Assembly: GCA_963664405.1 (NCBI GenBank)
Contig: OY761158.1
Location: 5,440,001-5,504,000 of the forward strand
Length of the DNA stretch: 64,000 nucleotides
Source: Thermoanaerobaculia bacterium
GTDB lineage: Bacteria > Acidobacteriota > Thermoanaerobaculia > Multivoradales > Multivoraceae
Direction: 5' to 3'
Shown: positions 2,200 to 36,886 of the stretch, in pieces
Position numbering within the stretch: position 1 is the stretch's first letter
Layout: every line of letters starts with the position of its first letter
Made by a program: the position numbers and the translations under genes
Notes under the pieces: generated by a model
The model's input: only the letters and a program-made list of their open reading frames with translations
Databases searched by the model: none
What the model was told of the DNA's origin: nothing

Positions 2200-4080
2200 G
2201 TGAGCTCGAGACACGGCCTCTTCTCCCTCATCGGCGCCTTGATCGTTGCCGGTGCGGCCCAGGCGCAGGCCGGATCACCGTGTGCGGTCGCCCACGAGCT
2301 CCCGGTCGTCACCCACTGGAGCAATGAGGCTCAGTCGTTCCGGTATCTCGCCTCCGATCAGATCGACTACGCCCTGCCCTATCAGGCCGACAAGCCCTAC
2401 ACGCCCGGCGGGGTCTACCCGGTCTATAAGGTCGGGGGCGAGACGTATACGCCCGACTTCGATCACTACGTCGGGACCCATTACTCGACGACAGGGATCC
2501 CCGACGCCCGCGCCGCGCAGTGGGCTCAGAAAGTCTGTGCCGACACCGGCGTGGCCGTGAAGCTGCTGCGCCCCGATGCGCTCGAGGGCGGGCGCCTGAG
2601 CTCAAAGCCGGGATTCGTACAGGCCTTGGTCGGGCTGATCGTCAAAACCACCGCCGCCGACCCCGGCTCGCTGGCGGCCGTGTTCCTTCCGCCCAACTGG
2701 TCGGCCGGCGCCGCGCCGGGGACGTACCCGATCCTGGCCCAGGGCTACTACGACCTCAATGACAGCGTCTTTCGCACGACGGGCCTCGGGTTCGACATGG
2801 CGCGCCAGATCGGTCGCAGCGGGATCGATGGCCGCAGCGGCGCGATCGGCGTGTTGTGGAACGGCGGCGGTGCCAGGGCGACGTACACGGTCAACGAAAA
2901 GGCCTACCGCCAGTTTGGCAGTGTGGTGGACCTCATTGCCCAAGCGTTCGGCGGCGACCGTCATCGCGTGATGATGTTCGGCGGCTCTCGCGGCGGCGTC
3001 TCGGCGATCAATATGGCGTCGAACCCCTACGACCTCGATTACACGATTACATTCGCGTCGGCGAGCGCGGCGCCGGCGCTCCCCGGCTCGATTGCGCGGC
3101 TGTCGTCGACGGCCACCTACCCTCGTGGGATCGGCAACCTGACCGGTGTCGTCGGCTTTCACGACTCTTGGCGGATGGGTTGGCGTTACCCTGAGGTCCC
3201 GGGGCGCGCGCACCTCGAGGGACTCGACTTGGCGCAGTCGGCCGCTTTCGTTCTCACCGGCTCGACCGACCTTGGCTACGCCGACAAAAATCTGGGCCCG
3301 TTCGCTGATCGCAACGTCGAACGGCTCGAGCGGGCCGGGACTGAGTTGTATCTGGAGATCGGCACGCACGACCGGCTGCCCTACATTCTGCAGGTCGAAT
3401 ACGCCAAGAAGCTGATCGAGCGGGGTCTGCCGGTCCACGCGGATGTCGTGGTGCGGGGCGGGCATGGCGGGGGCCGCGTCAACGCCGAAGGGAGCCCGGT
3501 CAAGAACGACCGCATGTGGGAGGCCTTGCTCGAGTACATCGACCCGGCGCGCTCGGGAAGGCCGCGCGTCGAGCCGGGCTGGACGTTTTACCGTGTCGAT
3601 CGTCGCAACGATCAGCGCGAGCTCTTCGAGCCCGAGGGCCACCCGTTCACCTTGGAGGCGCCGTATCTGGCGGTGGCCGGCCAGCGCTTTCCGCTCATCT
3701 TCATCGGCGAGCCGGGGACGGAATACGAATTGCGCATTACGCCGCCCGTGGGCGTCGAGTGGCCGGTCGCACGCTTTCGGGGGGCGATTCCGAAGAACGA
3801 GCCGCACAAACTCAGCACCATCGAGTGGTTCGCGACCGCTTCGGGAATGCCGCCGGGCGACTACGGCTACCGGATGACGATTCGCAAGACCGGAGGCAAG
3901 TGGATTGCGATCCCCGAGACGAACACGCCTGCGGGCGAGGGCGAGCGGGCGATCCTGAGAATCATTGCCGAGGAGCCGAATCTGCCCGGCGCGGAATGGT
4001 CGAACAAGATCCTCGAAATGACTCCTCACTTGAACGACCGCGGCGGGAACCCGTATGCCTGGGGACTCTCGGAATACTAG
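2200..4080 (+). CDS. Secreted hypothetical protein with probable alpha/beta-hydrolase core
   Basis: Signal peptide ending AQAQA; GGSRGG elbow, GTHD and GGHG as candidate triad. Confidence 0.6.
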   Translation: MSSRHGLFSLIGALIVAGAAQAQAGSPCAVAHELPVVTHWSNEAQSFRYLASDQIDYALPYQADKPYTPGGVYPVYKVGGETYTPDFDHYVGTHYSTTGIPDARAAQWAQKVCADTGVAVKLLRPDALEGGRLSSKPGFVQALVGLIVKTTAADPGSLAAVFLPPNWSAGAAPGTYPILAQGYYDLNDSVFRTTGLGFDMARQIGRSGIDGRSGAIGVLWNGGGARATYTVNEKAYRQFGSVVDLIAQAFGGDRHRVMMFGGSRGGVSAINMASNPYDLDYTITFASASAAPALPGSIARLSSTATYPRGIGNLTGVVGFHDSWRMGWRYPEVPGRAHLEGLDLAQSAAFVLTGSTDLGYADKNLGPFADRNVERLERAGTELYLEIGTHDRLPYILQVEYAKKLIERGLPVHADVVVRGGHGGGRVNAEGSPVKNDRMWEALLEYIDPARSGRPRVEPGWTFYRVDRRNDQRELFEPEGHPFTLEAPYLAVAGQRFPLIFIGEPGTEYELRITPPVGVEWPVARFRGAIPKNEPHKLSTIEWFATASGMPPGDYGYRMTIRKTGGKWIAIPETNTPAGEGERAILRIIAEEPNLPGAEWSNKILEMTPHLNDRGGNPYAWGLSEY

Positions 4081-4952: not shown

Positions 4953-6461
4953 GTGATCGACGCACAGCTGCGCGGGGAGATCCGTCGTCTGTTCCTGGTC
5001 GAGAAGTGGAAAGTCGGCACGATCGCTCGACAGCTACAGCTGCACCCCTCAACCGTGCGCCGGGCGCTGGAGAAGTCCGGCGTGCTACCCCAGCAGCGAC
5101 GAGGGAGGATGATCGATCCTTACCTGCCGTTCATCGAGCAGGTGCTCGGGACCTACCCACGACTGCCGGCGAGCCGTCTCTACACCATGGTGGTGGAGCG
5201 CGGCTATCCAGGAGGCCCGGATCAGTTTCGCCACCTGGTGGCCTCGATGCGACCGAAGCCCCAGCGCGAGGCGTTTCTCTCGCTGCGCATGCTGCCAGGA
5301 GAGCAGGCGCAGGTCGACTGGGGCCACTTCGGTCGGCTCCGCGTCGGCCGGGCACATCGTCGGCTCTATGCCTTCGTCTTCGTGCTGTCGTTCTCGCGCA
5401 CGGTCTTCGTGCACTTCACCCTCGACACTCGTCTCGAAACCTTCTTGCACGCTCACCAGCTGGCCTTCCACTACGTCGACGGCGTCGTCAGGACCGTTCT
5501 GTACGACAACCTGCGAACCGCGGTGATCGAGCGGCAGGGAACCGCGGTGCGCTTCCATCCCGTGCTGCTCGATTTCGCCAGCCACTACGGCTTCCTTCCC
5601 ACCGTCGCCGCGGTGGCTCGGGGAAATGAGAAAGGCCGCGTCGAGCGCGCAATCCGCTTCCTGCGAAGCTCGTTCTTCGGCGCCCGAACGGTGAGCGATT
5701 TGGATCGTCTGAATCGGCAGGTCCTGGAATGGTGCCAGAGGTCGCAGCGCAGACCCTGGCCGCAGGACCGACAGCGAACCGTGAAAAGCGCCCTGGCCCA
5801 GGAACGACCTCGACTGCTTGAGCTTCCCGGAGACGACTTCGAAACCGACCTGCGACTGGAGATCAAGGTCAGAAAGACGCCGATCGTGCGCTTCGACCTC
5901 AACGACTACTCGGTGCCGCACAGTCATGTGCAGAGGACCGTCACGCTCCTCGCCAGCGAGCATCGGGTGCGGATCCTCGATGGCCAGGAGCTCCTCGCCG
6001 AGCACCCTCGCTCGTACTCCCGGGGCGAGCAGATCCTCGATCCTCAACACCTCGAGGAGCTCCTCGCTCACAAACGCAGGGCCCGACGACACCGGGGCTT
6101 CCATCGGCTGTTTTCCGCTGTGCCTCGATGCGAAGAGCTGATGCAGCAGCTCGCCGAGCGAGGCGAGAACCTCGGAACGCAGACCGCCGGCCTGCTCCGA
6201 CTCCTGCGCCAGTACGGCCCCCAGCGACTCGACAAAGCCGTGCGCGAAGCGCTCCTGAACCACGCACCGCGATTCCAGTCCGTCCGGCTCCTACTCGAAC
6301 GGCACCAGCGCGGCCTCGGTCAGCCCCCGGCTTTACCGGTGCCGCTCAGCCAGGAGCTCCAACAGCGAGATCTCTCCGTGAGACCGCACAACCTCGAGGA
6401 CTACGACCAACTTGGAGGCAACGACGATGGCCCGACCCAGGAAGAGTCCAACGATCCCTGA
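4953..6461 (+). CDS. istA: IS21 transposase IstA
   Basis: N-terminal HTH, PGEQAQVDWG, LYDN, EKGRVERAI; GTG start inferred. Confidence 0.93.
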   Translation: MIDAQLRGEIRRLFLVEKWKVGTIARQLQLHPSTVRRALEKSGVLPQQRRGRMIDPYLPFIEQVLGTYPRLPASRLYTMVVERGYPGGPDQFRHLVASMRPKPQREAFLSLRMLPGEQAQVDWGHFGRLRVGRAHRRLYAFVFVLSFSRTVFVHFTLDTRLETFLHAHQLAFHYVDGVVRTVLYDNLRTAVIERQGTAVRFHPVLLDFASHYGFLPTVAAVARGNEKGRVERAIRFLRSSFFGARTVSDLDRLNRQVLEWCQRSQRRPWPQDRQRTVKSALAQERPRLLELPGDDFETDLRLEIKVRKTPIVRFDLNDYSVPHSHVQRTVTLLASEHRVRILDGQELLAEHPRSYSRGEQILDPQHLEELLAHKRRARRHRGFHRLFSAVPRCEELMQQLAERGENLGTQTAGLLRLLRQYGPQRLDKAVREALLNHAPRFQSVRLLLERHQRGLGQPPALPVPLSQELQQRDLSVRPHNLEDYDQLGGNDDGPTQEESNDP

Positions 6462-14728: not shown

Positions 14729-15628
14729 CTACTCCTTCTTCAGATGGCGATCCAGGAAGGCGACGACGGCGCGGCTCATCTCATCGTCGCTGCTCACGTC
14801 GCGATTGACGTCGTCATGGTCCTTGCTCTTCGCCATGAAGCTCTCGACCTCGACGCCCGCGGTGCGCAGGGCGCCGGCGAGCTCGTCGCTCGCCATTCCC
14901 GGCGGATATTGTTGGAACTGGATGCCGGCTGCGACAAGGAGGGTGGGCGGATGGCCCTTGTCCGGCGCGATGTGCGCCATCGCCGAAGCATCGCGCCAGT
15001 GCTCGGGAGTGTCGCCGAACTTCGAGAACGGGCCGGCGAGGATTGCGGGATCCTCGATCGCTGCGATTCGGGCCTCGAGATCGTAGGTGTGGCCGTCGAG
15101 GAGCACAGCCGCCTTCACCACCTCCAGACCGAGGCCGTGAGCCTCCAACCTGCGTTGATCCGTGATCAAGAGGCTACTCACCTGAGCGCCAGACGAGTGT
15201 CCGAGCAATCCGATGCGCTCAGGGTCTCCTCCGTAGTCCGAGATGTTCCGATACACCCAGGCAAAGGCAGCCGCGGTGTCCTCGAGCCAGGCAGGGTGAC
15301 GAACGGCGGGCGCGAGCCGATAGTTGATCGACACCACCACGTAGCCACGACTACAGAAGAAGTGCGGCTTGTCGCCCACCATCTCCTTGTCTCCGGCCCG
15401 ATAAGCGCCGCCGTGGACGTAGACCACCACAGGTGCCCCGTCGGCGCCGGCGGGAGCATAGATATCGAGCGCCTGGAGCTTCGCGTCACCGCCTTCGAGG
15501 TAGACCAGATCCGTCGTCGTCTGGATGACGAGATCGGGCGGGCGCTGCTCCTCCGAACAGGAGGCTATCGCCAACACCACAAGGGGCAAGGCCAAGAACC
15601 GCCATCCGTGAAAGCTCAGTTCGGGCAT
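14729..15628 (-). CDS. Alpha/beta hydrolase (carboxylesterase-like lipoprotein)
   Basis: HGGAY, GHSSG, lipobox-like IASC. Confidence 0.85.
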   Translation of the reverse strand: MPELSFHGWRFLALPLVVLAIASCSEEQRPPDLVIQTTTDLVYLEGGDAKLQALDIYAPAGADGAPVVVYVHGGAYRAGDKEMVGDKPHFFCSRGYVVVSINYRLAPAVRHPAWLEDTAAAFAWVYRNISDYGGDPERIGLLGHSSGAQVSSLLITDQRRLEAHGLGLEVVKAAVLLDGHTYDLEARIAAIEDPAILAGPFSKFGDTPEHWRDASAMAHIAPDKGHPPTLLVAAGIQFQQYPPGMASDELAGALRTAGVEVESFMAKSKDHDDVNRDVSSDDEMSRAVVAFLDRHLKKE

Positions 15629-15632
15629 CTCT

Positions 15633-15875
15633 CTACTCCTTCGCCAGGTGGCGCTTGAAAAAGGCGGTGACGGCGCGGCTCATCTCATCGTCGCTGCTCA
15701 CGTCGCGGTTGACGCCGCCGTGGTCTTTGCCGTGCGCCAAGTCCCCCTTGTGCAGGCCCTCAGGCGCGCCAGGCAAACCCACCTTGAGCAGCCCGGTTCG
15801 GAACGGACTTTGACCGGTGATGAAGGCGGCCCGGCCTGCGGTGCAGCTGTTCTGACCGTAGGCGTCGGTAAATCT
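15633..15875 (-). pseudogene. Chimeric remnant: arylsulfatase fragment joined to an esterase C-terminus
   Basis: [21 protein letters not shown] (CxAxR sulfatase motif), then [15 protein letters not shown] matching the 3' end of 14729-15628. Confidence 0.65.
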
Positions 15876-16003
15876 TCCAATAGCGCAATAAGAGTGTCCT
15901 CCGTCGTGGCACCTTCCGCTAGAAAGTGCGCCAACCCTCGACTCCTTGTTGAGACGAAACCGCGCAACCACCGAAAGTTGTCCGCGGAAGGAAGGTACCA
16001 GAT

Positions 16004-16030
16004 TGTCACCTTCCACCGAATTTCGCGACA
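16004..16030 (+). other. 27-bp putative recombination site S1
   Basis: TGTCACCTTCCACCGAATTTCGCGACA. Confidence 0.75.
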
Positions 16031-16061
16031 TCACTACATTCGGAGGCGTCGCTCTTCGTGC

Positions 16062-16589
16062 CTACCATTTGGTCCGGAACTCCTGCAGCACGAACTCGGG
16101 GCTCATGTTCAGGTAGATCTCGGTCGTCGACAGGTGATCGTGGCCGAGCATCATCTGCAAGGCGCGTGTCGAGCCACCCTTGTGAATCCACAGAATCGCA
16201 AAAGTGTGACGCAACACGTGGGGACTGACGGGACGGGAGATCGTCGCCGCGTTGGCGACGCGTCGCACGGTGCGCTGAGTGGTCCGCGCCGAGAAGTCGA
16301 TTGTCTCGTGGAGGATGAAATAGTGCTCGAAAAGAGCCCGCACACGGTCCGAGAGAGGTACAACTCGGAGCTTGGTGCGCTTTCCATAGGGGCCACCCTT
16401 TCCGTACAGCCGGATGCAGCGCTGCTGCCACTGGATCTGGTTCCTGGTCAAGTTGGCCAGCTCGGAGACGCGCATACCCGTCTCGAGAAGAGCCCAGATA
16501 CAGATCTTCTCCTCCATTGTCTCGCAGGCGTTGATGATTCGATCGGCTTCCTCAATCGACAGTGGCTCACGTTTGTGTTGGTATCTCAT
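16062..16589 (-). CDS. Minimal tyrosine recombinase (catalytic domain only, ~175 aa)
   Basis: TGMRVSE (R), GKG (K), HVLRH, LGH, TEIY (Y); too short for an N-terminal core-binding domain. Confidence 0.92.
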   Translation of the reverse strand: MRYQHKREPLSIEEADRIINACETMEEKICIWALLETGMRVSELANLTRNQIQWQQRCIRLYGKGGPYGKRTKLRVVPLSDRVRALFEHYFILHETIDFSARTTQRTVRRVANAATISRPVSPHVLRHTFAILWIHKGGSTRALQMMLGHDHLSTTEIYLNMSPEFVLQEFRTKW

Positions 16590-16663
16590 GGCACAGTCCA
16601 TCAGAGACTGCGCGGGAGGAAATCGCAGCTCCTCCCTGAGAGCCGGCTCTAGAGAGCTTTCTG

Positions 16664-16716
16664 GGTACTCATTCGGATCGAGCTATGCGTGTCGTAGTGC
16701 GCCACATAAAGCGACA
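16664..16716 (+). other. Linker motif plus site S2 (16690-16716)
   Basis: ..CTCATTCGGATCGAGCTATGCG-TGTCGTAGTGCGCCACATAAAGCGACA. Confidence 0.8.
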
Positions 16717-16723
16717 TCCTCTC

Positions 16724-19403
16724 TCAGTCGGCGGGAACGAGATGCTTCAGCTCCTCGGCCCAGTTCAAGACGACCTGGATGTGGGCTGGCGCGCCCTCGA
16801 GAGCCTTGATGAAGACGAAATCTCCGTTGGGTAGGACGTCGTACTGGGGGAAGGGGGACGGGTGTGAGTAGTAGCGCGCCTCGAAGAGGAGCTTCGGCCG
16901 CGAGTAGGTGAAGCTCTGGCCACCTGCCGACTCAGCCACGTCGACCTTCATCAACAGGTCACCGTTACGGTAAAAGAGCTCGCGCCCTTGCGTGCTCCAG
17001 ACGGGGTTTCGACCACCCCCGGTCGAGATTCGATACTTCGCCTCCGAGGTTCCGGCCAGCGGTCGCACGTAGACATTCAGCTGACCGTCTTCGTCGCTGA
17101 CGTACGCCACCCACCGCCCGTCGGGGGAGGATCTAGAGCTGGTCTCGTAGACCGGCGTCGCAAGAAAAGGTCGCGGCTCTGTTTCACCGGCAGGCAGCAT
17201 CATGATGTCGTGGAGGTTTACCGGATCCACCAGCTGGTAGAGAAGATCTCCGTTCGGCGTGAAGGAATGCGCCACCTGCACCGGCCCGGGTGCAGTAACG
17301 GCAATTTCGTCGGCGCTGCCATCGGCCAGCTTCGAGAAGAGGCCGATCCCTCCAGGTCGAGTCGACTGGAAGACCAGGCGATCACCTTCGGCGCTCCACA
17401 CCGCGAAGCCCGATCCCTTGAAGGTCAGCTGCCGCCGACTCTCCTGGGCTAGATCGTAGATCCAGACTTCGCGCCGCCGCAGGTCGGTGGCGTTGTTGCC
17501 GCTGAGGACCGTTACCGATACCTGATCTCCTGCTGGTGAGACGCGAGGCGCCAGATAGCTGTCGGGTGGGATCTCGAGCGGCGTCTCTTTGCCACGGCGA
17601 TCCACTCGTACCAGGGTCGACAGCCGTTGAGCGCTGATCGGCGTGGTTGCAAGGAGGTTTCTCGCGACCGCGTATTGCGACACTCCCCGCGCCACCGGTA
17701 CCGGCGTGCCGGTGACGCTCCCGGCTTCGACATCGAAGGGCACGGCCATCAAGTCGTTGTCGCGGCGAAACAGAAGATGTCCGGTCGATACGACCTGGGG
17801 GTCACGGGCGTCATCGAGCAATGTGAGTCTTCTGCCCGAGGCAACGTCGATGGCGATCAGGCTCGGGAGGCGCGAGGCGGCCACCACCTCCGCGAGGACG
17901 GTCTTTCCGCCGGGGAGTAGCTCGGGTGAGCTCGGTTTCCCTCGCCGCCCTGTTTCGCCGCCAGAGTCTGGAGCGTCCGCGTCGTCCGCGGGGACGGGAG
18001 GATGATAGAGCTCCGCAGTGCCGCCGACGGCCGGTACCACCAGCAACTCGTCCGAATCGAGGGTGGCGAAGACGATGCGATCGTCGTCACCCCAGGCACC
18101 GCCTCGGGGGATTGGGACATCGCAGATCGCTACCGGGGCTCCCCCCCCCCTGGGTCGGCAACCTCTTGAGCTCCGTGCCCTGAAAGAAGGCGATCCACTC
18201 GCCGTCCGGTGAGAACAGCGGAAACTGCGCCCCCCGGGTTCCCGCTAGCGGCTGGCTCGAGGGATCCGCGATTCTGCGGAGATGGAGCTGGTCTTGAGCT
18301 ACGAAGACGAGCTGGAGTCCGTCGGGCGATAGTGCGAGCTCGCGAAGCCCTTCAAGCCCTCTACCGTTGGCGCCGGTGATACTCAGCCGGGCCGGTCGTA
18401 GCGTCACGGGCTTTTCGTTTCGCGGCGCGATCAGGGTCGTCAGCAGCATGCCGGCTGCCAGTCCAACAGCAAGCGCGAGGGCAACACGTCCCCGGACCTT
18501 CGTGGGGGTGACCGCAAACTCGGAACCTGCGTTCGGGTCGGTAGCTGCGTCCCTCGCCTCCTCGATCTCGAAGCGAGCGTCACCGATGTCGCGCAATCTC
18601 TCGCTGGGCTCTCTCTTTAGGCAACGACGGAGCAGACGCTGGATCGCTCTCGGCGTCGGCGCAAGCCTTCCCCAGTCCAACTCTGCCCGAAGAACCGCTG
18701 CCAGTGTGTCGGCCGCATCGTCGCCCTCGAAGGCGCGGCGGCCTGCAAGCGCCTCGTAGAGGCACGCGCCGAAGGCCCATACGTCGGCCCGCTTGTCGAC
18801 CTCCCTGCCCTTCGCCTGTTCGGGCGACATGTACGCCGCGGTGCCAAGGATCTGGCCCTGGCGCGTTGCCGCGTAGGTGAGCGTGGGCGACTCCGAGGAG
18901 TCGCTCTCCGGGCCTGTCGCCGGAGCCATTGCCTTGGCCAGACCGAAGTCAAGAATCTTGACGTTCCCGTCGTCGGTGACCTTGATGTTCGCGGGTTTGA
19001 GATCCCGGTGGATCACGCCCTTTTCGTGGGCTGCCTCTAGACCTTCCGCGATCTGCAAGAAAACGGGCAAGGCTTCATCGACGGGGACAGCACCTCTCTT
19101 GATGCGCTCGGCGAGTGTCTCGCCTTCGACCAGTTCCATGACCAGGAAGTTAGTGTCCCCTTCCTTCTCGAAGCCGTAGAGCGTGGCGATGTTGTTGTGA
19201 TTCAGTGAGGCGAGGACGCGAGCCTCGCGCTCGAAGCGCGCCAGCCGCTCAGGATCTGTGGAAACCTCATCGAGAAGGAGCTTGATCGCTACCTCGCGCC
19301 CGAGCTTGGTGTCCTTGGCGCGATAGACCTCTCCCATTCCTCCCACTCCGAGGCTTGAGACCACTTCATAGTGGCCAAGGCGAGTGCCAGCTTCGAGCGC
19401 CAT
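16724..19403 (-). CDS. Ser/Thr kinase-TM-TolB/PD40 beta-propeller protein 1 (frameshift at C10 run 18141-18150)
   Basis: [20 protein letters not shown]; TM; SPDG repeats; frames join if one base of the run is removed. Confidence 0.88.
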
Positions 19404-19463: not shown

Positions 19464-19540
19464 TGTCGCGATGCACCCGGAACTGCGACAGCAGGAGCCT
19501 ATTCAGATCGAGCTATGGCTGTCGCAGTCCGCCACCAAAG
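19464..19540 (+). other. Site S3 (19464-19490), 29-bp linker and left part of S4 (from 19520)
   Basis: TGTCGCGATGCACCCGGAACTGCGACA; TGTCGCAGTCCGCCACCAAAG then IS. Confidence 0.8.
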
Positions 19541-19671
19541 TCATCATAGAAATGCGCTCGGGTGCGCCCGAGGTCAAGAAGTAGGGAGTTGTGAAGAACG
19601 GTCCTCCGTCGAAAGGGTCAAACTCGAGATGAGTAATTACCCTGGGCTTAGCCCCAAGAAGGAGGACCGAA

Positions 19672-20710
19672 ATGGAACGATATCTCGGACTCGACATGCA
19701 TCGGGACAGCTGCACGGCCGTCGTGCTGAGTGCCGGTGGGAAGAAGACCGGCGAGCAGGTGATGGCGACCGAAACCGCCGCGTTGGTGCAGTACATAAAG
19801 AGTCTCTCGGGAGAGCTTCACGTCTGTGTGGAGGAGGGCGAGTGGAGCGAGTGGGTAGTGGAGATCCTCAATCCATGGGTCTCGCGGGTGGTTTCGGCGT
19901 CGGCTCCGGGTCGCAAGGGTCCTCGCAGCGATGCGATGGACGCTCGCGAGCTCGCCGAGCGTCTGAGGACTCGCCAGACGGGTCCACCGGTCTACAAGGC
20001 GTCTCGGGAATGGGCGCGGCTGCGCGAGGCAGTGCCGCCTGGAGGGCAAGCTGCTCCAGGACGCGGTACGAGCCAAGCAGCGGCTCAAGAGTCTGTATCG
20101 ACGTCGTGGTGTGGCGTGCTTGGGCGAGGAGGTCTACTCCCCGCAGCTGCGCGAGCAGTGGCACGCGAAGCTGCCCGCAAGCGTGCGGCCATCCGCCGAG
20201 CTCCTGGGTCAGGAGCTCGATCACCTCACAGAGCTGCACCAGACCGCCGAGCGGCAGATGTGTGCAGCCGCTGGCAAGTTTCCGATGTGGCGCAAGCTCC
20301 AGACGGCTCCGGGGATCGGCCGCAAACGATCGGCACAACTGCTAGCGATCGTGGTGACCCCTCATCGCTTCCGCACCAAACGACTCTTCTGGTCCTACTG
20401 CGGACTCGGTGTGGTCACGCGCTCGACCTCGGACTGGGTCCGCCAGCCGAACGGTCAGATGGTGCGGGCTCCAGTGATCCAGGCCCGGGGGCTGAACAAA
20501 GCCTGCAACCGTCAGCTCAAGGGGCTCTTTGTGGGCGCCGCGAAGACGGCTCTCCGCTGCCGGCGACCCAATCCCCTGCGCGACGCCCACGAACGGATGG
20601 TCGAGGCCGGGACCAAACCGAATCTGGCCCAGCTCACCATCGCGCGAAAGATCGCTGCAGTGGTGCTGGCCATGTGGAAGAGCGAAAGCGAGTATCGGAT
20701 CATGAGCTGA
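19672..20710 (+). CDS. IS110 transposase, +1 frameshift near 20034
   Basis: YLGLDMH, EEG, SDAMDA (DEDD); APGIG, SYCGLG, IARK; split over two ORFs. Confidence 0.85.
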
Positions 20711-21090
20711 GTCTCACCTTCGACCGCTTCCCTGCCGGGCTCTGGCGCCGAGCGCCGGACCGAGACGGGGATCGGTGCCGGGTCGGACTCAGAGATCCAA
20801 AGGTCGAGGGAGAGTCTCCACTGTCGTCTTGTGCCCCATCATCGATGGGAGTAACTGACATAAGTCTAGGCCCCCTCCCAGGACCAAAAGAAGAGATGGC
20901 CCACGAGGCCCTGATGGAAGGCTGGTCCCAGCATACGAGGACCCACACACTCACTTCTCATCTCACGAGCTCACCCGCAACAGGAACCGATCCCCGAACC
21001 GGAAGACGCCTCGCGGATCCACTCGGTAGAGGAATAGCCCGCGCTCGATCCCAAGACCTCGAGCGCTCAGGGAAACTCCGTCTTGACATC
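20711..21090 (+). ncRNA. Putative seek/bridge RNA region (extent approximate)
   Basis: CTGTCGTCTT (20821-30) is the revcomp of right flank AAGACGACAG; ATGGAAG (20914-20) matches the element right end. Confidence 0.6.
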
Positions 21091-21101
21091 GATTTCTATG
21101 G

Positions 21102-21176
21102 AAGACGACAGCTCGCCGATTTCGGGGCCTATCGCCTTTCAGCTATTCGTGTCGTGGTCCGCCAGATTCTGCGACA
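21102..21176 (+). other. Right part of S4, 39-bp linker and site S5 (21150-21176)
   Basis: AAGACGACA; TGTCGTGGTCCGCCAGATTCTGCGACA. Confidence 0.8.
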
Positions 21177-23949: not shown

Positions 23950-24042
23950 TGGCGTCTTCCACCATGAAAGACGACAGCCCCTCTGCTCAGAGGCTCATCT
24001 GCTTTCAGCTATACGTGTCGTCCTTCGCCACATTTCACGACA
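23950..24042 (+). other. Site pair S6 (23950-76) and S7 (24016-42) with 39-bp linker
   Basis: TGGCGTCTTCCACCATGAAAGACGACA; TGTCGTCCTTCGCCACATTTCACGACA. Confidence 0.8.
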
Positions 24043-24050
24043 TGCTTCGC

Positions 24051-26728
24051 TCAGTCGGTGGGAACCAGACGCTGCAGCTCCTCGAACCAGTTCTGGACCA
24101 GGACGACGTGACTGCTCGAGCCCCCCTCGGTCGTCTCCGCCGGTTTGACCATCAGGAACCTCTGACCGTCAGGGTGGATGTCGTACATGCGGCCGATTCT
24201 GACGGCATAGCTCCCCGTGAAGAGCTCCTGTGGGCTCCCAGCCTCGAACGCGGGCTCGGTTGTGACCGGCACTGCCATCAGCCGATCGCCGGCACGATAG
24301 AAGATCTCGCTCCCGTCGGGCGACCATAGCGGTTCGCTGCCACCGCCCGCTGAGATCGGGAAGCGACCGCCGTCGACCTCAGGGAATGGCCTCACATAGA
24401 TCTCGTCCTCGCCTGATTCGTCCGACTGGTAGGCCAGGAAACGACCGTCGGGTGAGATCTCTCCACTCCGCTCATTGATATCCGTGGCGAGAAGCAGCTG
24501 TGGCGCTCCCTCGCCTTCCAGCGACAGCACCCCCAGATCGAATCCCCCCCCTGCGCCGACGCGGTAGACGAGAAGCTTGCCATCGGGAGAGATCGACGAG
24601 GGAAATAGACTGTCTGGGCTGTCGGTGAGAGGCCTTACAGCGCCCGTACCGTCAGCCGCCCTCTGGTAGACGTCGAAGGTCCCGCCACGAACCGAGCTGT
24701 ACACCACTTCGCGGCTGTCAGGAGTCCAGATCGAATACATGTCTGGTCCCGGATCGCGGGTCAACCGGTCCAGGGTCTCCCGACCGAGATCCCAGATCCA
24801 CACATCCTGTTCTTCATCCTGGGAAGAGACCGCTACCCGCTGTCCATCCGGAGAGATGCGGGGAAGCAGGTAGGGCCGAATCGGGGCCAAGAGGGCCTCC
24901 TCCCTCCCGTCCCGTCCCACCCAGACCAGGGCCGTCTGCACCCCTCCCCCTGCGCCACCCGTGACGTACACCAAGGATCCGTCCTGCGAGAAGTCGAAGT
25001 TCACAGCACCTGTGGGCTTCGTGCCGACGCCTTCCAAGACGGGCACCGGATTTCCCCGGACCTCAAGACTTCCTGCATCGAAGGCCACCGCACGTAACGT
25101 ACCGCTCACTCCATAGACCAGGTGCCCAGTGGGCACGTACCGGGCGCCGGCCCCTCCAGAGACCAGGACCTTCCGCTCCCCGGTGGCGAGAGATAGGGCC
25201 ACGATCTGCGTCTGCTCGACGTTCGCGCTCGTAAATACCGTGAAAAGGACGGCCTCGCCGCCGGGTAGTACATCGGGGAAGCGATAGCTACTCTCTCCTC
25301 TCTCGGGATCTGGCGCTACCAGCAGCTCCGGCTCGCCGCCTCCCCCCGACATCCGATAGAGGCCCTCGGAGATGGAGCTGAAGATGATGGTGTCGTCCGC
25401 GCCCCAGCTCACACCGGGGAGAATGCCGCCGGGTATGTCGGCCAAGGTCACGATTGGTCCCCCGAGAATGGAGACCTTCTTGAGAGTTCCGCCGGATGCG
25501 AAGCCGACCCAGGCCCCGTCAGGTGAGAGGAAAGGAGTCCTCGCGCCCTCCGTGCCTTCCAGGTGGGACCCGACGAGGCTGCCCACGTGGCGAACATAGA
25601 GAGAGCCTCCGCTCTGGTAGACCACCGCACGACCGTCGGTTGTCACCGCCAGATCGCGCCCGTTTGGGAGAACGCTCACCGGCGCGCTGGGAGCGGCGCT
25701 CAGCACCGAGCGAACCACGGGGCGCTCGGTCGGCAGTGGAGCAGGCTTCAGCATCCAGACTGCGCTGGCGATCACTGCGACGGCAGCGAGGGCGGCGAGA
25801 ATGAGGGGGACGGGACTGCGCTTCTCCGCCATAACCGCCCCGGGGGTCTCCTCGTCCTCCGGAGCCGCCATGACTTCTTCGATCTCGATGCGGGCATCAC
25901 CGATATCGTGCAGCCTCTGCCTTGGGTCCTTGCTGAGACACCGCCGCAACAGTTCTCTGAGCTTTCTGGGCGTGTCGCCAGGGAGCCCTTCCCAGCCCGG
26001 GTCAGACTTGAGCACCGACGCCAAGGTGGTGGAAGCGTCCTCGCCCTCGAAGACTCGCTTGCCGCTCAGCGCCTCGAACAGACAGACCCCGAAGGCCCAC
26101 ACATCGGCGCGCTTATCGACGGTCTTTCCTCGCGCCTGCTCGGGAGCCATGTAGGCGGCTGTGCCGAGAATCTGACCCCGTTGAGTTGCTGCAAGAGTGA
26201 GGGTCGGAGATTCGGACAAGCGCCCTCTCCGGTGGCACTAGCTTCCACAGCCATCGCCTTGGCCAACCCGAAATCGAGGAGCTTCACGGCACCCTCGTCC
26301 GACACTTTGATGTTCGCGGGCTTCAGATCGCGATGGATGACGCCCTTCTCGTGGGCTGCCTCCAGCCCCTCAGCGATCTGCAAGAAGACGGGCAATGCTT
26401 CGTCGACTGGCATGGCTCCTCTCTTGATGCGATCCGCTAGAGTCTCGCCCTCCACCAGTTCCATGACCAGGAAGCTGGTGTCGCCTTCCCGCTCGAAGGC
26501 GTGAAGGCTGGCGATGTTCTTGTGGTTGAGCGAGGCCAGAACCCGCGCCTCCCGCTCGAGGCGAGCTAGGCGCTCCGGGTCAGAGGAGACCTCGTCAAGC
26601 AGGAGTTTGACCGCCACCTCGCGCCCGAGCTTCGTGTCGCGAGCTCGGTAGACCTCTCCCATGCCCCCGGCACCGAGGGAGGAGACCACTTCGTAGTGGC
26701 CGAGGCGAGTGCCAGCTTCTAGCGCCAT
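24051..26728 (-). CDS. Ser/Thr kinase-TM-beta-propeller protein 3 (1-nt frameshift near 26220)
   Basis: ORFs 26066-26728 and 24051-26219 join after DFG into one kinase-propeller protein. Confidence 0.88.
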
Positions 26729-26787
26729 GACTTGGTGACATCTTACCCGTCGCCCGGGGGATCAGCGGCTCAGAGCTCGATCTGTGC

Positions 26788-26880
26788 TGTCGCACCTCAC
26801 CGAATTTCACGACAGCCCCTTCTCTCAGAGGGTTATCTGCTTTCGGCTATACCTGTCGCAGAGCGCCAGGGATTGCGACA
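26788..26880 (+). other. Site pair S8 (26788-814) and S9 (26854-880) with 39-bp linker
   Basis: TGTCGCACCTCACCGAATTTCACGACA; TGTCGCAGAGCGCCAGGGATTGCGACA. Confidence 0.8.
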
Positions 26881-26923
26881 GACAGTGGCAGCTCTGTCGG
26901 CCCCTACTCTGGAGGGAGAGATC

Positions 26924-27385
26924 CTATTTGCGCTCATGAACAAGATCGATTTGGAACTCGCGGCGAATCTCTGCGAGCGGCCGGCTCAAGAAGGTGTCGA
27001 AGTTGGACCAAGGCCACTTGGCCGGCATGCGATGACCTCGCCACGCAGCCTTGACGAGGATCGGTACTGACCTGGCGAAGGTGACCAAAGCTGTCCGCCA
27101 GCCAACCTTTGCCATGATGTCTTTGTGCTCCTCGACCCTGAAGAAGCCAAGAAACTGACGGATGCTCACAGAGGTACCGAAGAGCGTCCATGTGTCCGTC
27201 AAGGCCTCGCCAGCCAGGCTAGTGCTACAGCCGAACAAGACATGGGCCGTGTCGTGGCACCGAAAGAACTCAGCGCCGAGTCCTCCGGGATCTCGGGCTG
27301 AGGCGAGCCCTGGGTTTGCAGCCCAATACTCCATCAGCCCCTCGGCCAGAGTCTGCCGTGATTCCTGCTCCTGATACCTTGGCAA
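26924..27385 (-). CDS. Hypothetical protein with Coq4-like HDxxH motif
   Basis: HDTAHVLFG..SLAGEA; C-terminal RPLAEIRREF; AAGGAG RBS. Confidence 0.6.
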   Translation of the reverse strand: MPRYQEQESRQTLAEGLMEYWAANPGLASARDPGGLGAEFFRCHDTAHVLFGCSTSLAGEALTDTWTLFGTSVSIRQFLGFFRVEEHKDIMAKVGWRTALVTFARSVPILVKAAWRGHRMPAKWPWSNFDTFLSRPLAEIRREFQIDLVHERK

Positions 27386-27481
27386 GGCCGAACTCTCCTT
27401 CGCGGAGCTCTCACGCCATCAACCAGCGCGTAGTCTAGCGTCCGACCACAGCAATAGGACGCTCTTTCGGCACGCCCTCAC

Positions 27482-27508
27482 TGTCGTAGTGCGCCACATT
27501 TCGCGACA
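27482..27508 (+). other. Site S10
   Basis: TGTCGTAGTGCGCCACATTTCGCGACA. Confidence 0.8.
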
Positions 27509-27512
27509 CCAT

Positions 27513-27571
27513 TCAGTCGGTGGGCCGCGTGGCGTTTCAACTCGTCGAAGCAGTTGAGGACGACATAGCTG
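27513..27571 (-). pseudogene. 3'-terminal remnant of another kinase-propeller gene
   Basis: YVVLNCFDELKR..PTD* matches paralog tails such as VLNWAEELK/VLDWFDELKR..PTD*. Confidence 0.65.
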
Positions 27572-27586
27572 CAATGCTTAAGCCGC

Positions 27587-28054
27587 TTAGAGATCCAGCA
27601 ATGGTCCTACGATCTCCATGTTGTACTTCTCGGCCAATTCTTCGGCTTTGGCAACGTAAGCTTCTGTGTCCGTGACATCCAGATCAACCGCCTCGTCAAA
27701 GAACTGCTCGAATCCTGGTGGAGAAATGATGGCGAGTAATTTGGCAGGTTCCTGCCCGGCGCGACACCAGGCGTGAACCGTTCCCCTGGGGATGAGGACG
27801 AAAGAACCAGCTTTCGCTATAGAAGTGGTTTCTCCCAACAGTACTTTGACCTCTCCCTCCAAGACGTAGAAGGCTTCCTCCTCGGTTTTGTGTATATGCT
27901 GTGGCGGTCCGTCGCCGGTTAGCTCGATCTCCAAAAGTGAGTACGCACCACCGGTGTCTGCACCAACCACCTTAAGCGTTATCTCGTGGCCTGGCACTGG
28001 AACTGTCTTGCCCTCTCCTGGGCCGAGTACAACATTCCCATCGTCAATAGACAT
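27587..28054 (-). CDS. Cupin domain protein
   Basis: PPQHIHKTEEEAFYVLEG, PRGTVHAW; AAGGAG RBS. Confidence 0.9.
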   Translation of the reverse strand: MSIDDGNVVLGPGEGKTVPVPGHEITLKVVGADTGGAYSLLEIELTGDGPPQHIHKTEEEAFYVLEGEVKVLLGETTSIAKAGSFVLIPRGTVHAWCRAGQEPAKLLAIISPPGFEQFFDEAVDLDVTDTEAYVAKAEELAEKYNMEIVGPLLDL

Positions 28055-28224
28055 ACATTGTTCTCCTTAGTTCTCCCATGGAACACAAAAGATTGGGACT
28101 GACGGCTTTGGTGAATCAGGCCTGGGCGACCATCGCAACCATCCACTTTAGATGAGTGAACAGGAGTATACGTCTGCGCCGGGTCTGGTCCCGCTACCCT
28201 TCTGGTGGGGGACCCGATTCGCGC

Positions 28225-28316
28225 CGTCGTAATGCGCCGAATTTCACGACACACCTCTGCTCGAAGGCTTATCTGCTTCCGGCTATGCGTGTCGCGGTCC
28301 GCCACATTTCACGACA
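28225..28316 (+). other. Site pair S11 (28225-51) and S12 (28290-316) with 38-bp linker
   Basis: CGTCGTAATGCGCCGAATTTCACGACA; TGTCGCGGTCCGCCACATTTCACGACA. Confidence 0.8.
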
Positions 28317-31000: not shown

Positions 31001-31060
31001 TGACTTGGCGACATCATACCCGTCGCCCGGGGGATCAGCGGCTCAGAGCTCGATCTGTGC

Positions 31061-31130
31061 TGTCGCACCTCACCCAAAAGTGCGACAGCGGGAGGCTTAT
31101 TCGCTTCGAGCTATTCTTGTCGTAGTCCCA
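31061..31130 (+). other. Site S13 (31061-87), 30-bp linker and half-site S14 (from 31118)
   Basis: TGTCGCACCTCACCCAAAAGTGCGACA; TGTCGTAGTCC without a right arm. Confidence 0.75.
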
Positions 31131-32466: not shown

Positions 32467-32493
32467 TGTCGCAGTCCGCCACATTTCACGACA
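32467..32493 (+). other. Site S15
   Basis: TGTCGCAGTCCGCCACATTTCACGACA, 3 bp from the kinase 5 stop. Confidence 0.8.
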
Positions 32494-35214: not shown

Positions 35215-35272
35215 GACTTGGCGACATCTTACAGTCGCCCGTGGGATCAGCGGCTCAGAGCTCGATCTGTGC
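35215..35272 (-). promoter_or_regulatory. Conserved kinase leader with putative -10 TAAGAT
   Basis: Similar copies at 19404-19463, 26729-26787, 31001-31060; diverged copy at 23889-23949. Confidence 0.55.
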
Positions 35273-35299
35273 TGTCGCACCTCACCACAGAAGACGACA
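35273..35299 (+). other. Site S16
   Basis: TGTCGCACCTCACCACAGAAGACGACA. Confidence 0.8.
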
Positions 35300-35431
35300 C
35301 GCCTGCCCGCCAGAGCCCGAAAATGCTGGATTCTCCTTGCATCCAAAAGGGAAAAGACGACACCGTGACGCCTGTTCTGCGAAGGTGCGACACCTTCGTC
35401 CTGGGTTGCTCATCGCAAACGGAGGGAGCGT

Positions 35432-35497: not shown

Positions 35498-35635
35498 CTC
35501 GCGGGGGCTCGACGTAGGATGTGGAGCCGGCCACAATTCAAGGCTGCTTTTGGAAAATGGAGTCGAAGCGGAGCTTGACCGCGAGCATCGCGGACAGGCT
35601 GAGTGCGAAGAGACTCAGGAGAGAGGGTGGTGACA

Positions 35636-36886
35636 ATGACGTGGACGCTGAACCATCGTTGGTGGATCCTTGGCATCGCTTTCTTGCTGGCGCTCGGGCC
35701 CGGCGATACCTGGTCACAGGAGATCGTCGAAGTCGGCGATCGATCCGCCAACTGCGATGACGATGCCGCGTGCATCAACCGACTTCATCCTGCGATTCCG
35801 ATGGCGGCGCGCGCCCAGCCGGGGGCGACAATTGTTCTTCATACTCGCAACGCGAGCGACTTCGATCTCGATCCCGAGGCCCCACCGGATCCGAGGGACG
35901 GAGACTTCGGCGTCGGCACGATTCATGCCCTCACCGGCCCGGTGCATATTGAGGGCGCCGAGCCCGGTGACGTCCTCAAGGTCCGAATCCTCGATATCGC
36001 GCCGGGGCCGTGGGCCTTTACGGTGATCGCACCGATCGGGTTCGTTAGCGACAAGATCGCAGGGCCCCTGCGCATCCTGTGGCGACTGAACCGGGACTAT
36101 GCTGTCTCGGACGATCTACCCGGTGTGCGCATTCCCAACCGCAGCTTCCCGGGTATCGTCACCGTCTTGCCGGGGCCGAAGGAGCACGCAGAGATGATGG
36201 CCCGAGAGGCCGAGCTCTTGGAGGCGGGAGGAGCGGTGATGCCGCCCACTCATCTGACCCACGCTTCTCCTCGAGAGGTGTGTGGCGAAGGCGGCAGCCA
36301 TGCCGGCGAGTGTCTACGCACGATTCCACCGCGCGAGCATGGCGGCAACATGGATATCAGGTATCTGGGGACGGGAGTCTCCATCTATCTGCCCTGTTAC
36401 CTGCCGGGCTGCGGCCTCGCCATCGGAGACCTGCACTACGCGCAGGGGGATGGCGAGGTCTCCGGCACCGCGCTCGAAATGGACGCCACCGTCACCGTGA
36501 CGACTGAGTTGATCAAGGACGGCCGGGATCTAGGTCGTGGCCCCCATTACGAGGGGCCGTCCTCCCTCCTGGATATTCCGTCCAGGTCGTTTTACGCGAC
36601 GACCGGTTTTCCGATCAAAGAGAAGGGCGAAGTGCCACCGGACATGCGCTATCTCGGATCGCAGCAGGTGGCGGGGCTCGAGAACTTGTCAAAGGACATT
36701 TCGTTGGCCGCGCGCAATGCATTGCTCGAGATGATCGACTACATCTCCGAGACCTACGGCTATACGAGAGAACAGGCATACATCATCTCGTCGATTGCGG
36801 TGGACCTCAGAATCGGCCAATTGGTGGACGCACCGAACGTCGGTGTGACCGCAATCCTGCCGCTGGATATTTTCGAGCCGCGCTAG
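35636..36886 (+). CDS. Acetamidase/formamidase family protein with signal peptide
   Basis: LTGPVHIEGAEPGD, PPREHGGNMD, GDLHYAQGDGE. Confidence 0.92.
   Translation: MTWTLNHRWWILGIAFLLALGPGDTWSQEIVEVGDRSANCDDDAACINRLHPAIPMAARAQPGATIVLHTRNASDFDLDPEAPPDPRDGDFGVGTIHALTGPVHIEGAEPGDVLKVRILDIAPGPWAFTVIAPIGFVSDKIAGPLRILWRLNRDYAVSDDLPGVRIPNRSFPGIVTVLPGPKEHAEMMAREAELLEAGGAVMPPTHLTHASPREVCGEGGSHAGECLRTIPPREHGGNMDIRYLGTGVSIYLPCYLPGCGLAIGDLHYAQGDGEVSGTALEMDATVTVTTELIKDGRDLGRGPHYEGPSSLLDIPSRSFYATTGFPIKEKGEVPPDMRYLGSQQVAGLENLSKDISLAARNALLEMIDYISETYGYTREQAYIISSIAVDLRIGQLVDAPNVGVTAILPLDIFEPR

Follow-up and report, generated by a model that had tools for sequence, protein, structure and literature searches.

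A catalytic-domain-only tyrosine recombinase as the candidate engine of integron-like cassette arrays in a Thermoanaerobaculia genome

The closest described counterparts of the system reported here are integrons, the Xer recombinases, the resolution systems of plasmids and of the TnpI type, the pdif modules of Acinetobacter and the FimB/FimE-type invertases. In tyrosine recombinases, the core-binding domain has a structural role in reading the inner arm of the recombination site, and TnpI-type and other resolution enzymes have an N-terminal DNA-binding domain. The Xer site dif measures ~28 bp, pdif modules use the host XerC/D and have sites that alternate in orientation, and insertion sequences of the IS1111 type target the attC sites of integrons. 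Here we analyzed a stretch of 64,000 nucleotides from a Thermoanaerobaculia bacterium of the phylum Acidobacteriota (GenBank assembly GCA_963664405.1, contig OY761158.1, positions 5,440,001 to 5,504,000, forward strand), which we call the window. It carries an array of gene cassettes bounded by 27-bp sites and, between two of these sites, S1 and S2, the gene for a tyrosine recombinase of about 175 residues that, unlike the resolution enzymes, has a catalytic domain only. We judge it probable, as a single joint explanation, that this gene encodes a working, naturally minimal, Xer-like tyrosine recombinase, and that this mini-recombinase, which belongs to a family of plasmid modules, moves cassettes at sites that have multiplied in this genome.

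The recombinase open reading frame (ORF) occupies window positions 16062-16601 on the reverse strand. It has 179 codons when counted from the first ATG, GTG or TTG after the preceding stop codon, within a stop-to-stop frame of 206 codons. Because the homologs begin at the second ATG (residue 5; start at 16589), the product probably has 175 aa. A Pfam scan placed PF00589 ('Phage_integrase') on residues 16-167 (profile positions 5-169 of 172; E 3.4e-29), and the same scan returned no second domain. The first catalytic Arg lies ~40 residues after the N-terminus. When 27 family members were aligned, 46 columns were invariant and included the whole catalytic set, namely R44, K68 (in a GKGG hairpin), H128-x-x-R131, H154 and Y163; K77 is likewise invariant. 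An AlphaFold model of the protein (pLDDT 83.4) has the fold of a catalytic domain. There are 48 chains in the Protein Data Bank (PDB) that match it at E<=0.001, and most of those listed are tyrosine recombinases or integrases, with XerA at the top; the best solved match is the archaeal XerA 5hxy, with a TM score of 0.77 on the query and 0.51 on the target at 30% identity. The protein is thus a member of the tyrosine recombinase superfamily by both its residue set and its catalytic fold. A homodimer prediction scored 0.01, which weighs neither way. The sequence-only reading of this region had described a protein of ~175 aa with a full R-K-HxxR-H-Y set and had proposed structure prediction as a check, and the alignment and the model bear it out.

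That reading had also held that there is no room for a core-binding domain or for an insertion of the IntI type, and we arrive at the same result. Since 88 nt between the start codon and S2 and 31 nt between the stop codon and S1 are all that separate the gene from its flanking sites, a core-binding domain cannot fit. Likewise, the IntI profile TIGR02249 covers residues 104-164 only (68 bits vs a cut-off of 265), and with the match so confined and only 175 aa in total, the protein has no IntI-type insertion. Other NCBIfam models also scored far below their cut-offs (XerA, 117.3 vs 220 bits; XerC, 94.3 vs 335; XerD, 92.8 vs 330), and the two FimB/FimE-type models reached 26.5 and 27.2 bits, where 221 and 222 are required. 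When the family profile was aligned with the XerA chain 4a8e (292 aa), residues 104-270 only of that chain were aligned. In the available part of the classification by Smyshlyaev et al. 2021 (PMC8138268), every group of tyrosine recombinases has a core-binding domain, including the simple tyrosine recombinases, and the mini-recombinase lacks it.

A short recombinase gene could be a truncated or decaying, inactive remnant of a two-domain integrase, and the short length, together with truncated or decayed copies in this genome and in a relative (G408), would suit such an origin. Searched against 5.8 billion proteins, the recombinase had 2,691 matches, and the best 120 of these (57-92% identity) are almost all 175 aa long. 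When cluster representatives were searched exhaustively with HMMER, 58 clusters reached E<=1e-30; their lengths are mostly 150-200 aa, with some fragments and a few longer members (223-294 aa). Thus, the closest homologs are proteins of ~175 aa and not full-length two-domain proteins, in line with what had been expected if the gene were not a truncation. The N-terminus is conserved in the family as M-x-Y-Q-Y/H-K-R-E-P-L. The two nearest homologs, L107 and L108 on metagenome contigs, share 92% protein identity and ~90% coding-DNA identity with the window gene, and the corresponding dN/dS values are 0.106 and 0.110. A length of 175 aa kept in at least 120 homologs, a conserved N-terminus, a dN/dS of 0.11 and a full catalytic residue set all argue against a remnant, which we consider extremely unlikely.

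The family is sparse among the relatives of the host and broad beyond them. The gene is present in 1 of 401 sampled genomes of the phylum (E<=1e-30), and family members occur in Poribacteria, Aerophobetes, Clostridia, Elusimicrobiota, Planctomycetota, Acidobacteriota, Methanosarcinales, Woesearchaeota and Nanoarchaeota. In PLSDB, five annotated plasmids carry the gene as 'site-specific integrase': two from Cardinium and one each from Megaira, Piscirickettsia and Aquicella. A family search of phages gave just one weak match. Full-text searches of the literature found a description of neither the mini-recombinase family nor such arrays.

S1 and S2 belong to a set of 27-bp sites of the form TGTCG-N17-CGACA, in which the outer bases are conserved and the inner arms (positions 6-10 and 18-22) vary. 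An asymmetric centre, C[A/G]CC at positions 11-14, gives each site a polarity and defines two classes, A (CACC) and B (CGCC); since this centre has the same orientation throughout, A and B are direct and not inverted repeats. Both S1 and S2 read '+', like all other sites of the window array, so the recombinase is flanked by sites oriented as the rest, as the sequence-only reading had it. The window contains 11 exact sites against 0.10 expected, a number reached in 0 of 100 shuffles, and the complete 6.78-Mb genome contains 118 against ~8 expected from base composition. A stricter pattern that includes the centre yields 88 matches here, as against 0-5 per genome in 60 relatives, a comparison set in which the genus is represented by one genome and a close relative is absent. 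Among these 60, only G408 has real-looking sites, and its copy of the gene is frameshifted and lies ~300 bp from a site. A scan of window positions 15000-36500 found no Rfam family.

Across the genome the sites are clustered in arrays and not dispersed: ~100 sites of classes A and B bound at least seven arrays. The seven large arrays lie at 17.5-41, 599-618, 747-783, 3,944-3,980, 4,985-5,004, 5,456-5,475 (the window) and 6,506-6,523 kb, and beyond them we observed two mini-arrays and some single sites. The repeat unit consists of a B site, a gene, an A site and a linker of 39 nt (sometimes 30 nt) that leads to the next B, with the starts of A and B 66 bp apart. All nine arrays, large and mini, end in a terminal site of a third type, T, which in seven of the nine starts 93 bp after the last A. 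Every cassette gene of the window array lies on the reverse strand, with its 5' end toward T.

We observed three duplicates shared between arrays. Arrays 1 and 3, which are 730 kb apart, share a segment of 3,827 bp at 99.69% identity; the identity runs from position 11 of a B site to position 16 of the next B, and the outer arms and flanks are unrelated. The two others, of 860 bp at 98.4% and 582 bp at 99.5% identity, likewise have their boundaries at B-site positions 11-17, with one end of the third duplicate at a degenerate site. As judged from these alignments, boundaries inside the 7-bp centre of B sites mark site-specific exchange. These boundaries bear on a different account of the array, in which the 27-bp units and linkers are repeats like repetitive extragenic palindromes (REP) or bacterial interspersed mosaic elements (BIME), spread by a Y1 (RAYT-type) transposase or by slippage, with a mosaic produced by homologous recombination or gene conversion and the recombinase a bystander. 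The sites are indeed palindromic at their ends, intergenic and targeted by insertion sequences, and the genome has nine Y1-transposase matches. However, none of the nine lies inside an array, the sites are essentially limited to two genomes that have the gene, and the same site design occurs upstream of the gene on plasmids of other phyla. That three recent duplicates are bounded in the same 7-bp centre with unrelated flanks is, moreover, unexpected for homologous exchange. We regard REP-like spread as very improbable.

The junctions between cassettes also appear mosaic. Some blocks composed of an A right arm, linker and B left arm are identical in four arrays beside different genes (the block at 26788-26880 recurs in three other arrays), and the site at 28225 is a hybrid of a B left arm and an A right arm. 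Linkage was measured with Mantel tests over 19 junctions; a histogram of block boundaries was dropped in favor of these tests, being confounded by the conserved/variable pattern of the site. At the A site, linkage is present between flank and left arm (r 0.36, p 0.0035) and is not significant between left arm and centre (r 0.04), which places a linkage break inside the site. The A centre is in turn linked to the right arm (r 0.75, p 0.0005), and the right arm to the linker (r 0.45). The B right arm is weakly linked to its own flank (r 0.19, p 0.015).

The earlier reading had proposed a search of homolog flanks for TGTCG-N17-CGACA, and this search found that gene and site co-occur. The 94 homolog loci comprise 14 of 80 from species-representative genomes and 80 from metagenomes. 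An exact site lies <=350 nt upstream of the gene in 22 of the 90 loci with enough upstream sequence. The density near the gene is 0.86 per kb (27 sites in 31 kb) vs 0.028 per kb in the rest of the loci (17 in 614 kb), and most of those 17 are site pairs 550-960 nt upstream with starts 84-95 bp apart. We also observed variant 27-bp palindromes with other outer bases (TTGCGC/GCGCAA, GTTCG/CGAAC and TGGCG/CGCCA), hosted by Planctomycetota, Elusimicrobiota and a Piscirickettsia plasmid. Of the left arms, that of S1 most resembles the site usually found upstream of homologs in other genomes. Downstream, ParA is a neighbor in 21 of the 94 loci, with a small protein after ParA in seven, and RepA in nine; HicAB lies upstream of the gene in five loci, and locus L015, read by eye, has the start of an apparent Tn3-family transposase near the gene. 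Neighbor clustering over the 94 loci found no small partner ORF regularly beside the gene. By its layout alone, the usual module of the family, with one or two upstream sites beside parA or repA, suggests a plasmid-type, res-like resolution system. In four plasmid-type loci (L116 9299, L118 191, L121 323 and L146 344), site II, which is proximal to the gene, has TATAAT in its centre; this suggests that the site overlaps a promoter, such that the recombinase could regulate itself.

The end of an array, an A followed by a T at 93 bp, has the layout of the two-site module upstream of homologs elsewhere. Since it mirrors this ancestral module, the arrays look like cassettes piled into the first site. 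Four other genomes with a family member (G444-G447) were scanned and have just one to three real-looking sites near the gene and no arrays, which is why we take the arrays to be specific to this lineage and to the organisms of L107 and L108.

The mechanism that we propose is as follows. Two monomers would bind the conserved outer 5-7 bp of each site. Without a core-binding domain the inner arm would go unread, and the variability of that arm fits an enzyme without the domain that normally reads it. Strand exchange would occur within the 7-bp centre. Recombination of B with B, or of A with A, between direct repeats would release a cassette as a circle, and the reverse reaction would insert it, other arrays included; such exchange between arrays would give rise to the observed duplicates. 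In this genome, the site type of the module would have multiplied to ~100 copies, splitting at least seven chromosomal arrays. We infer both the direction of cassette flow and that the mini-recombinase itself, and not another recombinase, catalyzes the exchange; no better candidate for moving the cassettes emerged.

Several findings weigh against this explanation. In the Mantel tests, the left arm of B shows no significant linkage to either the linker (r 0.05) or the centre (r 0.00), and only some junctions fit the simple picture of a fixed block that spans the A right arm, the linker and the B left arm. A joint of S1 with S2, that is, a form without the recombinase, is absent from the contigs (contigs, not reads) of four sequencing runs, although this absence proves nothing by itself. 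In run X11, one contig (depth 8) joins 26814 to 28251, where the A site that begins at 26788 and the hybrid site that begins at 28225 end, and leaves out two small cassettes, which another contig of the same run contains; the joint is ambiguous, since it may reflect either polymorphism in cassette content or a paralogous junction from a different array, and was not used as support. A joint of 26801 to 19506, considered as a junction swap, was not used because it is indistinguishable from paralogous junctions of other arrays. The lack of arrays in G444-G447 means that some other factor could be behind them. The orientation of the gene relative to site polarity is, moreover, the reverse of that at most homolog loci.

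The genome also holds other tyrosine recombinases, with at least 10 matches of ~300 aa or more, and one of 286 aa that rides on an IS91-family element. This element, 2.6 kb long, carries the 286-aa two-domain tyrosine recombinase upstream of the IS91 transposase, and four of its five copies are located within linkers, at a distance of 17 nt from a site of type A, B or T. It could therefore be that the sites are real and that another enzyme acts on them, either a host XerC/D-type recombinase or the 286-aa protein, with the mini-recombinase a passenger of plasmid origin or active on its own module only. A protein with a core-binding domain would be the conventional binder of such sites. However, the site design accompanies the mini-recombinase in many phyla where the IS91-type element was not seen, and the 60 relatives are without the sites although Xer proteins are expected in all of them. 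The IS91-type copies, furthermore, interrupt linkers at a fixed offset, which resembles insertion, and are not bounded by sites. We therefore consider action by another enzyme unlikely, and the mini-recombinase acting at its own multiplied sites remains the explanation that we favor.

The recombinase unit itself runs from an A site to a B site and stands in place of the 39-nt inter-cassette linker, at the end of the array far from T. The 21 leader nucleotides adjoining S2 agree with the B-proximal linker ends at 9-17 positions (the maximum in 500 shuffles was 14), and the 18 nt on the S1 side have no match to linkers (4-7 of 18). In L107 and L108 the order is B site, gene, A site and the 5' end of a kinase cassette, so that the gene is internal to an array. 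Within this genome, a second copy at 782,905-783,120 consists of a B site, the 88-nt leader and the first 33 codons, then breaks off; it lies at the T-distal end of array 3, a position equivalent to that in the window. At the mini-array at 873756-874206, in which T starts 93 bp after the A, a divergent recombinase remnant follows 190 nt on, on the opposite strand, and represents the last 46 codons of a second mini-recombinase lineage with 52% identity. There is a single intact copy in the genome.

To the left of S1, gene fragments replace the expected cassette. With the cassette on that side gone, the unit could now leave only via exchange between S1 and another A site. By eye, the 133-aa ORF at 15633-16034 is chimeric, combining a sulfatase-like fragment with a duplicate of the last ~30 codons of the esterase gene at 14729-15628; one X11 contig passes directly from 14764 to 15669 over a 39-nt repeat, and there is thus a form that lacks the esterase copy. 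The suggestion, made from the sequence alone, that the enzyme moves as a cassette itself is partly supported. The layout in L107 and L108 and the truncated copy in array 3 speak for it, and the A-to-B composition of a unit in the place of a linker, together with the lack of an excised form in the contigs, qualifies it; the unit is not one of the B-to-B cassettes, the kind for which movement could be shown. A companion suggestion, that excision of the gene would freeze the array, fits the existence of decayed copies and the single intact one, the loss of which would leave all arrays static, and it stays conjectural.

The features of the window array, and the copies of the IS91-family element, are collected in Table 1.

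Table 1. Features of the recombinase unit and cassette array (window coordinates unless preceded by C1)
Feature	Coordinates	Strand	Remarks
S1, A-type site (centre CACC)	16004..16030	+	one outer mismatch (TGTCA); pattern search
Catalytic-domain-only tyrosine recombinase, 179 aa	16062..16601	-	probable true start 16589, giving 175 aa
88-nt leader, S2 to start codon	16602..16689	-	
S2, B-type site (centre CGCC)	16690..16716	+	exact TGTCG-N17-CGACA; pattern search
Kinase-PD40 cassette in two ORFs	16724..19403	-	kinase 18087-19403, propeller 16724-18046
A site (19464-19490), 29-nt linker, B-type left arm and centre (from 19520)	19464..19546	+	cut by insertion sequence
IS110-family-like element, in centre of site	19547..21083	+	approximate ends
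Right arm of interrupted site, linker, B site (21150-21176)	21084..21176	+	
Ser/Thr kinase-PD40 cassette, 901 aa	21183..23888	-	
Junction: A site (23950), 39-nt linker, B site (24016)	23950..24042	+	one mismatch in A site
Kinase-PD40 cassette in two overlapping ORFs	24051..26728	-	26066-26728 and 24051-26219
Junction: A site, 39-nt linker, B site	26788..26880	+	
Two small cassettes (153-aa unknown; 155-aa cupin)	26924..28054	-	B site 27482-27508 between
Hybrid site (B-type left arm and centre, A-type right arm), linker, B site (28290)	28225..28316	+	
Ser/Thr kinase-PD40 cassette, 838 aa	28484..31000	-	
A site, then short linker	31061..31087	+	linker of 30-nt type
DUF3047 protein cassette, 408 aa	31215..32441	-	
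B site	32467..32493	+	
Ser/Thr kinase-PD40 cassette, 949 aa	32497..35346	-	adjoins terminal sites
Array terminus: last A (35273-35299), T-type site (35366-35392)	35273..35392	+	one mismatch in T-type site
IS91-family copies	C1 34789-37392; 41380-43976; 596927-599449; 615191-617709; 887165-889767		93-99.9% identity

The cargo of the cassettes consists mostly of Ser/Thr kinases with a PD40 beta-propeller, and also includes a cupin, a DUF3047 protein and a protein of unknown type. Genome-wide, 22 of the 27 matches to the propeller part lie inside the seven large arrays, at 26-50% amino-acid identity among themselves; since the cassettes are this divergent, the sites are not leftovers of recent tandem duplication. 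Two kinase-propeller cassettes are split (16724-19403 and 24051-26728), the reading frame changing either at the passage from kinase to propeller or inside the kinase domain itself, and are probably pseudogenes kept in the array. The kinase cassettes have a conserved leader of ~60 nt from the A site to the start codon (26729-26787, 31001-31060 and 35215-35272) and a conserved C-terminal ending (…LVP[AT]D) right before the B site, so that the mobile unit carries its own untranslated regions. The linkers (e.g. 23977-24015 and 26815-26853), as seen by eye, have in their A-proximal half a hairpin of 5-6 bp whose stem varies with linker type, and in their B-proximal half keep a GCTAT motif. The by-eye idea that ATAGC next to B sites serves as a -10 box was dropped: a sigma-70 scan of the array gave 1 match vs 2.5 expected, with no promoter match at the junctions. 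The IS110-like element of ~1.5 kb has a B-type left arm and centre on one side and an A-type right arm on the other (19520-21110); its DEDD match is weak (E 1e-4, under the curated cut-off), and its long ORF looks frame-disturbed. An intI-like gene beside the T site was also considered and rejected, as the ORF at 35603-36886 is an acetamidase/formamidase.

Should the 175-aa protein prove able to recombine 27-bp sites unaided, it would rank among the smallest autonomous site-specific recombinases and would be a test case for tyrosine recombinases that work without a core-binding domain, for which a site design with conserved outer and free inner positions makes a clear, testable prediction. It would also follow that a plasmid resolution module can give rise to gene banking of the integron type, with ordinary duplex sites and no IntI, and that detection tools based on IntI and attC would miss such systems. 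The arrays of a soil Acidobacteriota genome, and the many sensor kinases that it has gathered and keeps in them, would thereby be explained. Members of the mini-recombinase family are widespread, in bacteria, archaea and the plasmids of endosymbionts and a fish pathogen, and are annotated merely as 'site-specific integrase'. More tentatively, and with somewhat less than even confidence, we suggest that the system is a self-contained counterpart of the integron for duplex DNA, in which a clampless 175-aa engine that reads only the outer 5-7 bp rides in the spacer between cassettes, the arrays descend from a two-site resolution module of plasmid type by the piling of cassettes into its first site, and the bacterium banks and reshuffles about two dozen divergent membrane sensor kinases among at least seven chromosomal arrays.

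Compared with known systems, the catalytic domain is nearest in sequence and fold to that of Xer/XerA (5hxy, 4a8e), and the size of the site, 27 bp, is close to that of dif. The family differs from Xer in being without the N-terminal ~90-100 residues, with an XerA score of 117 bits vs a cut-off of 220, and in having many sites in arrays vs a single site at the replication terminus. The FimB/FimE-type invertases (~200 aa) are also unusually short tyrosine recombinases, but their profiles match very weakly and they invert DNA between inverted repeats, whereas the repeats here are direct. With TnpI and the internal recombination site (IRS) of Tn4430, as described in the available part of the source (PMC2847244), and with plasmid multimer resolution, the family shares a recombinase gene next to its own site or sites. 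It shares with resolution systems its upstream sites, its ParA and RepA neighbors and its presence on five plasmids; in the window, S2 lies 88 nt upstream of the gene, but no plasmid genes are nearby, and the sites bound cassettes in chromosomal arrays. The pdif modules of Acinetobacter, in the available part of their description (PMC7399989), are likewise gene modules bounded by short Xer-type duplex sites in varied contexts; here, in contrast, the sites of an array point in the same direction and a dedicated mini-recombinase travels along.

The likeness to integrons extends to co-oriented, mostly single-gene cassettes between sites, a terminal site that faces the 5' ends of the cassettes, a tyrosine recombinase, exchange at sites among co-oriented cassettes, reflected here in inter-array duplicates that end in site centres, and insertion sequences of the IS110/IS1111 kind that land in sites. 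The mini-recombinase differs from IntI in having neither a core-binding domain nor the IntI-specific insertion. Its sites are 27-bp direct repeats of duplex type, in two classes 66 bp apart, in contrast to the folded single attC hairpins of integrons; its gene is internal to the array, at the end remote from the terminal site, and points in the direction of the cassettes; and the cassettes are large (~2.7 kb) and encode paralogous sensor kinases. These likenesses and differences suggest an integron-like cassette system with a minimal, Xer-like recombinase.

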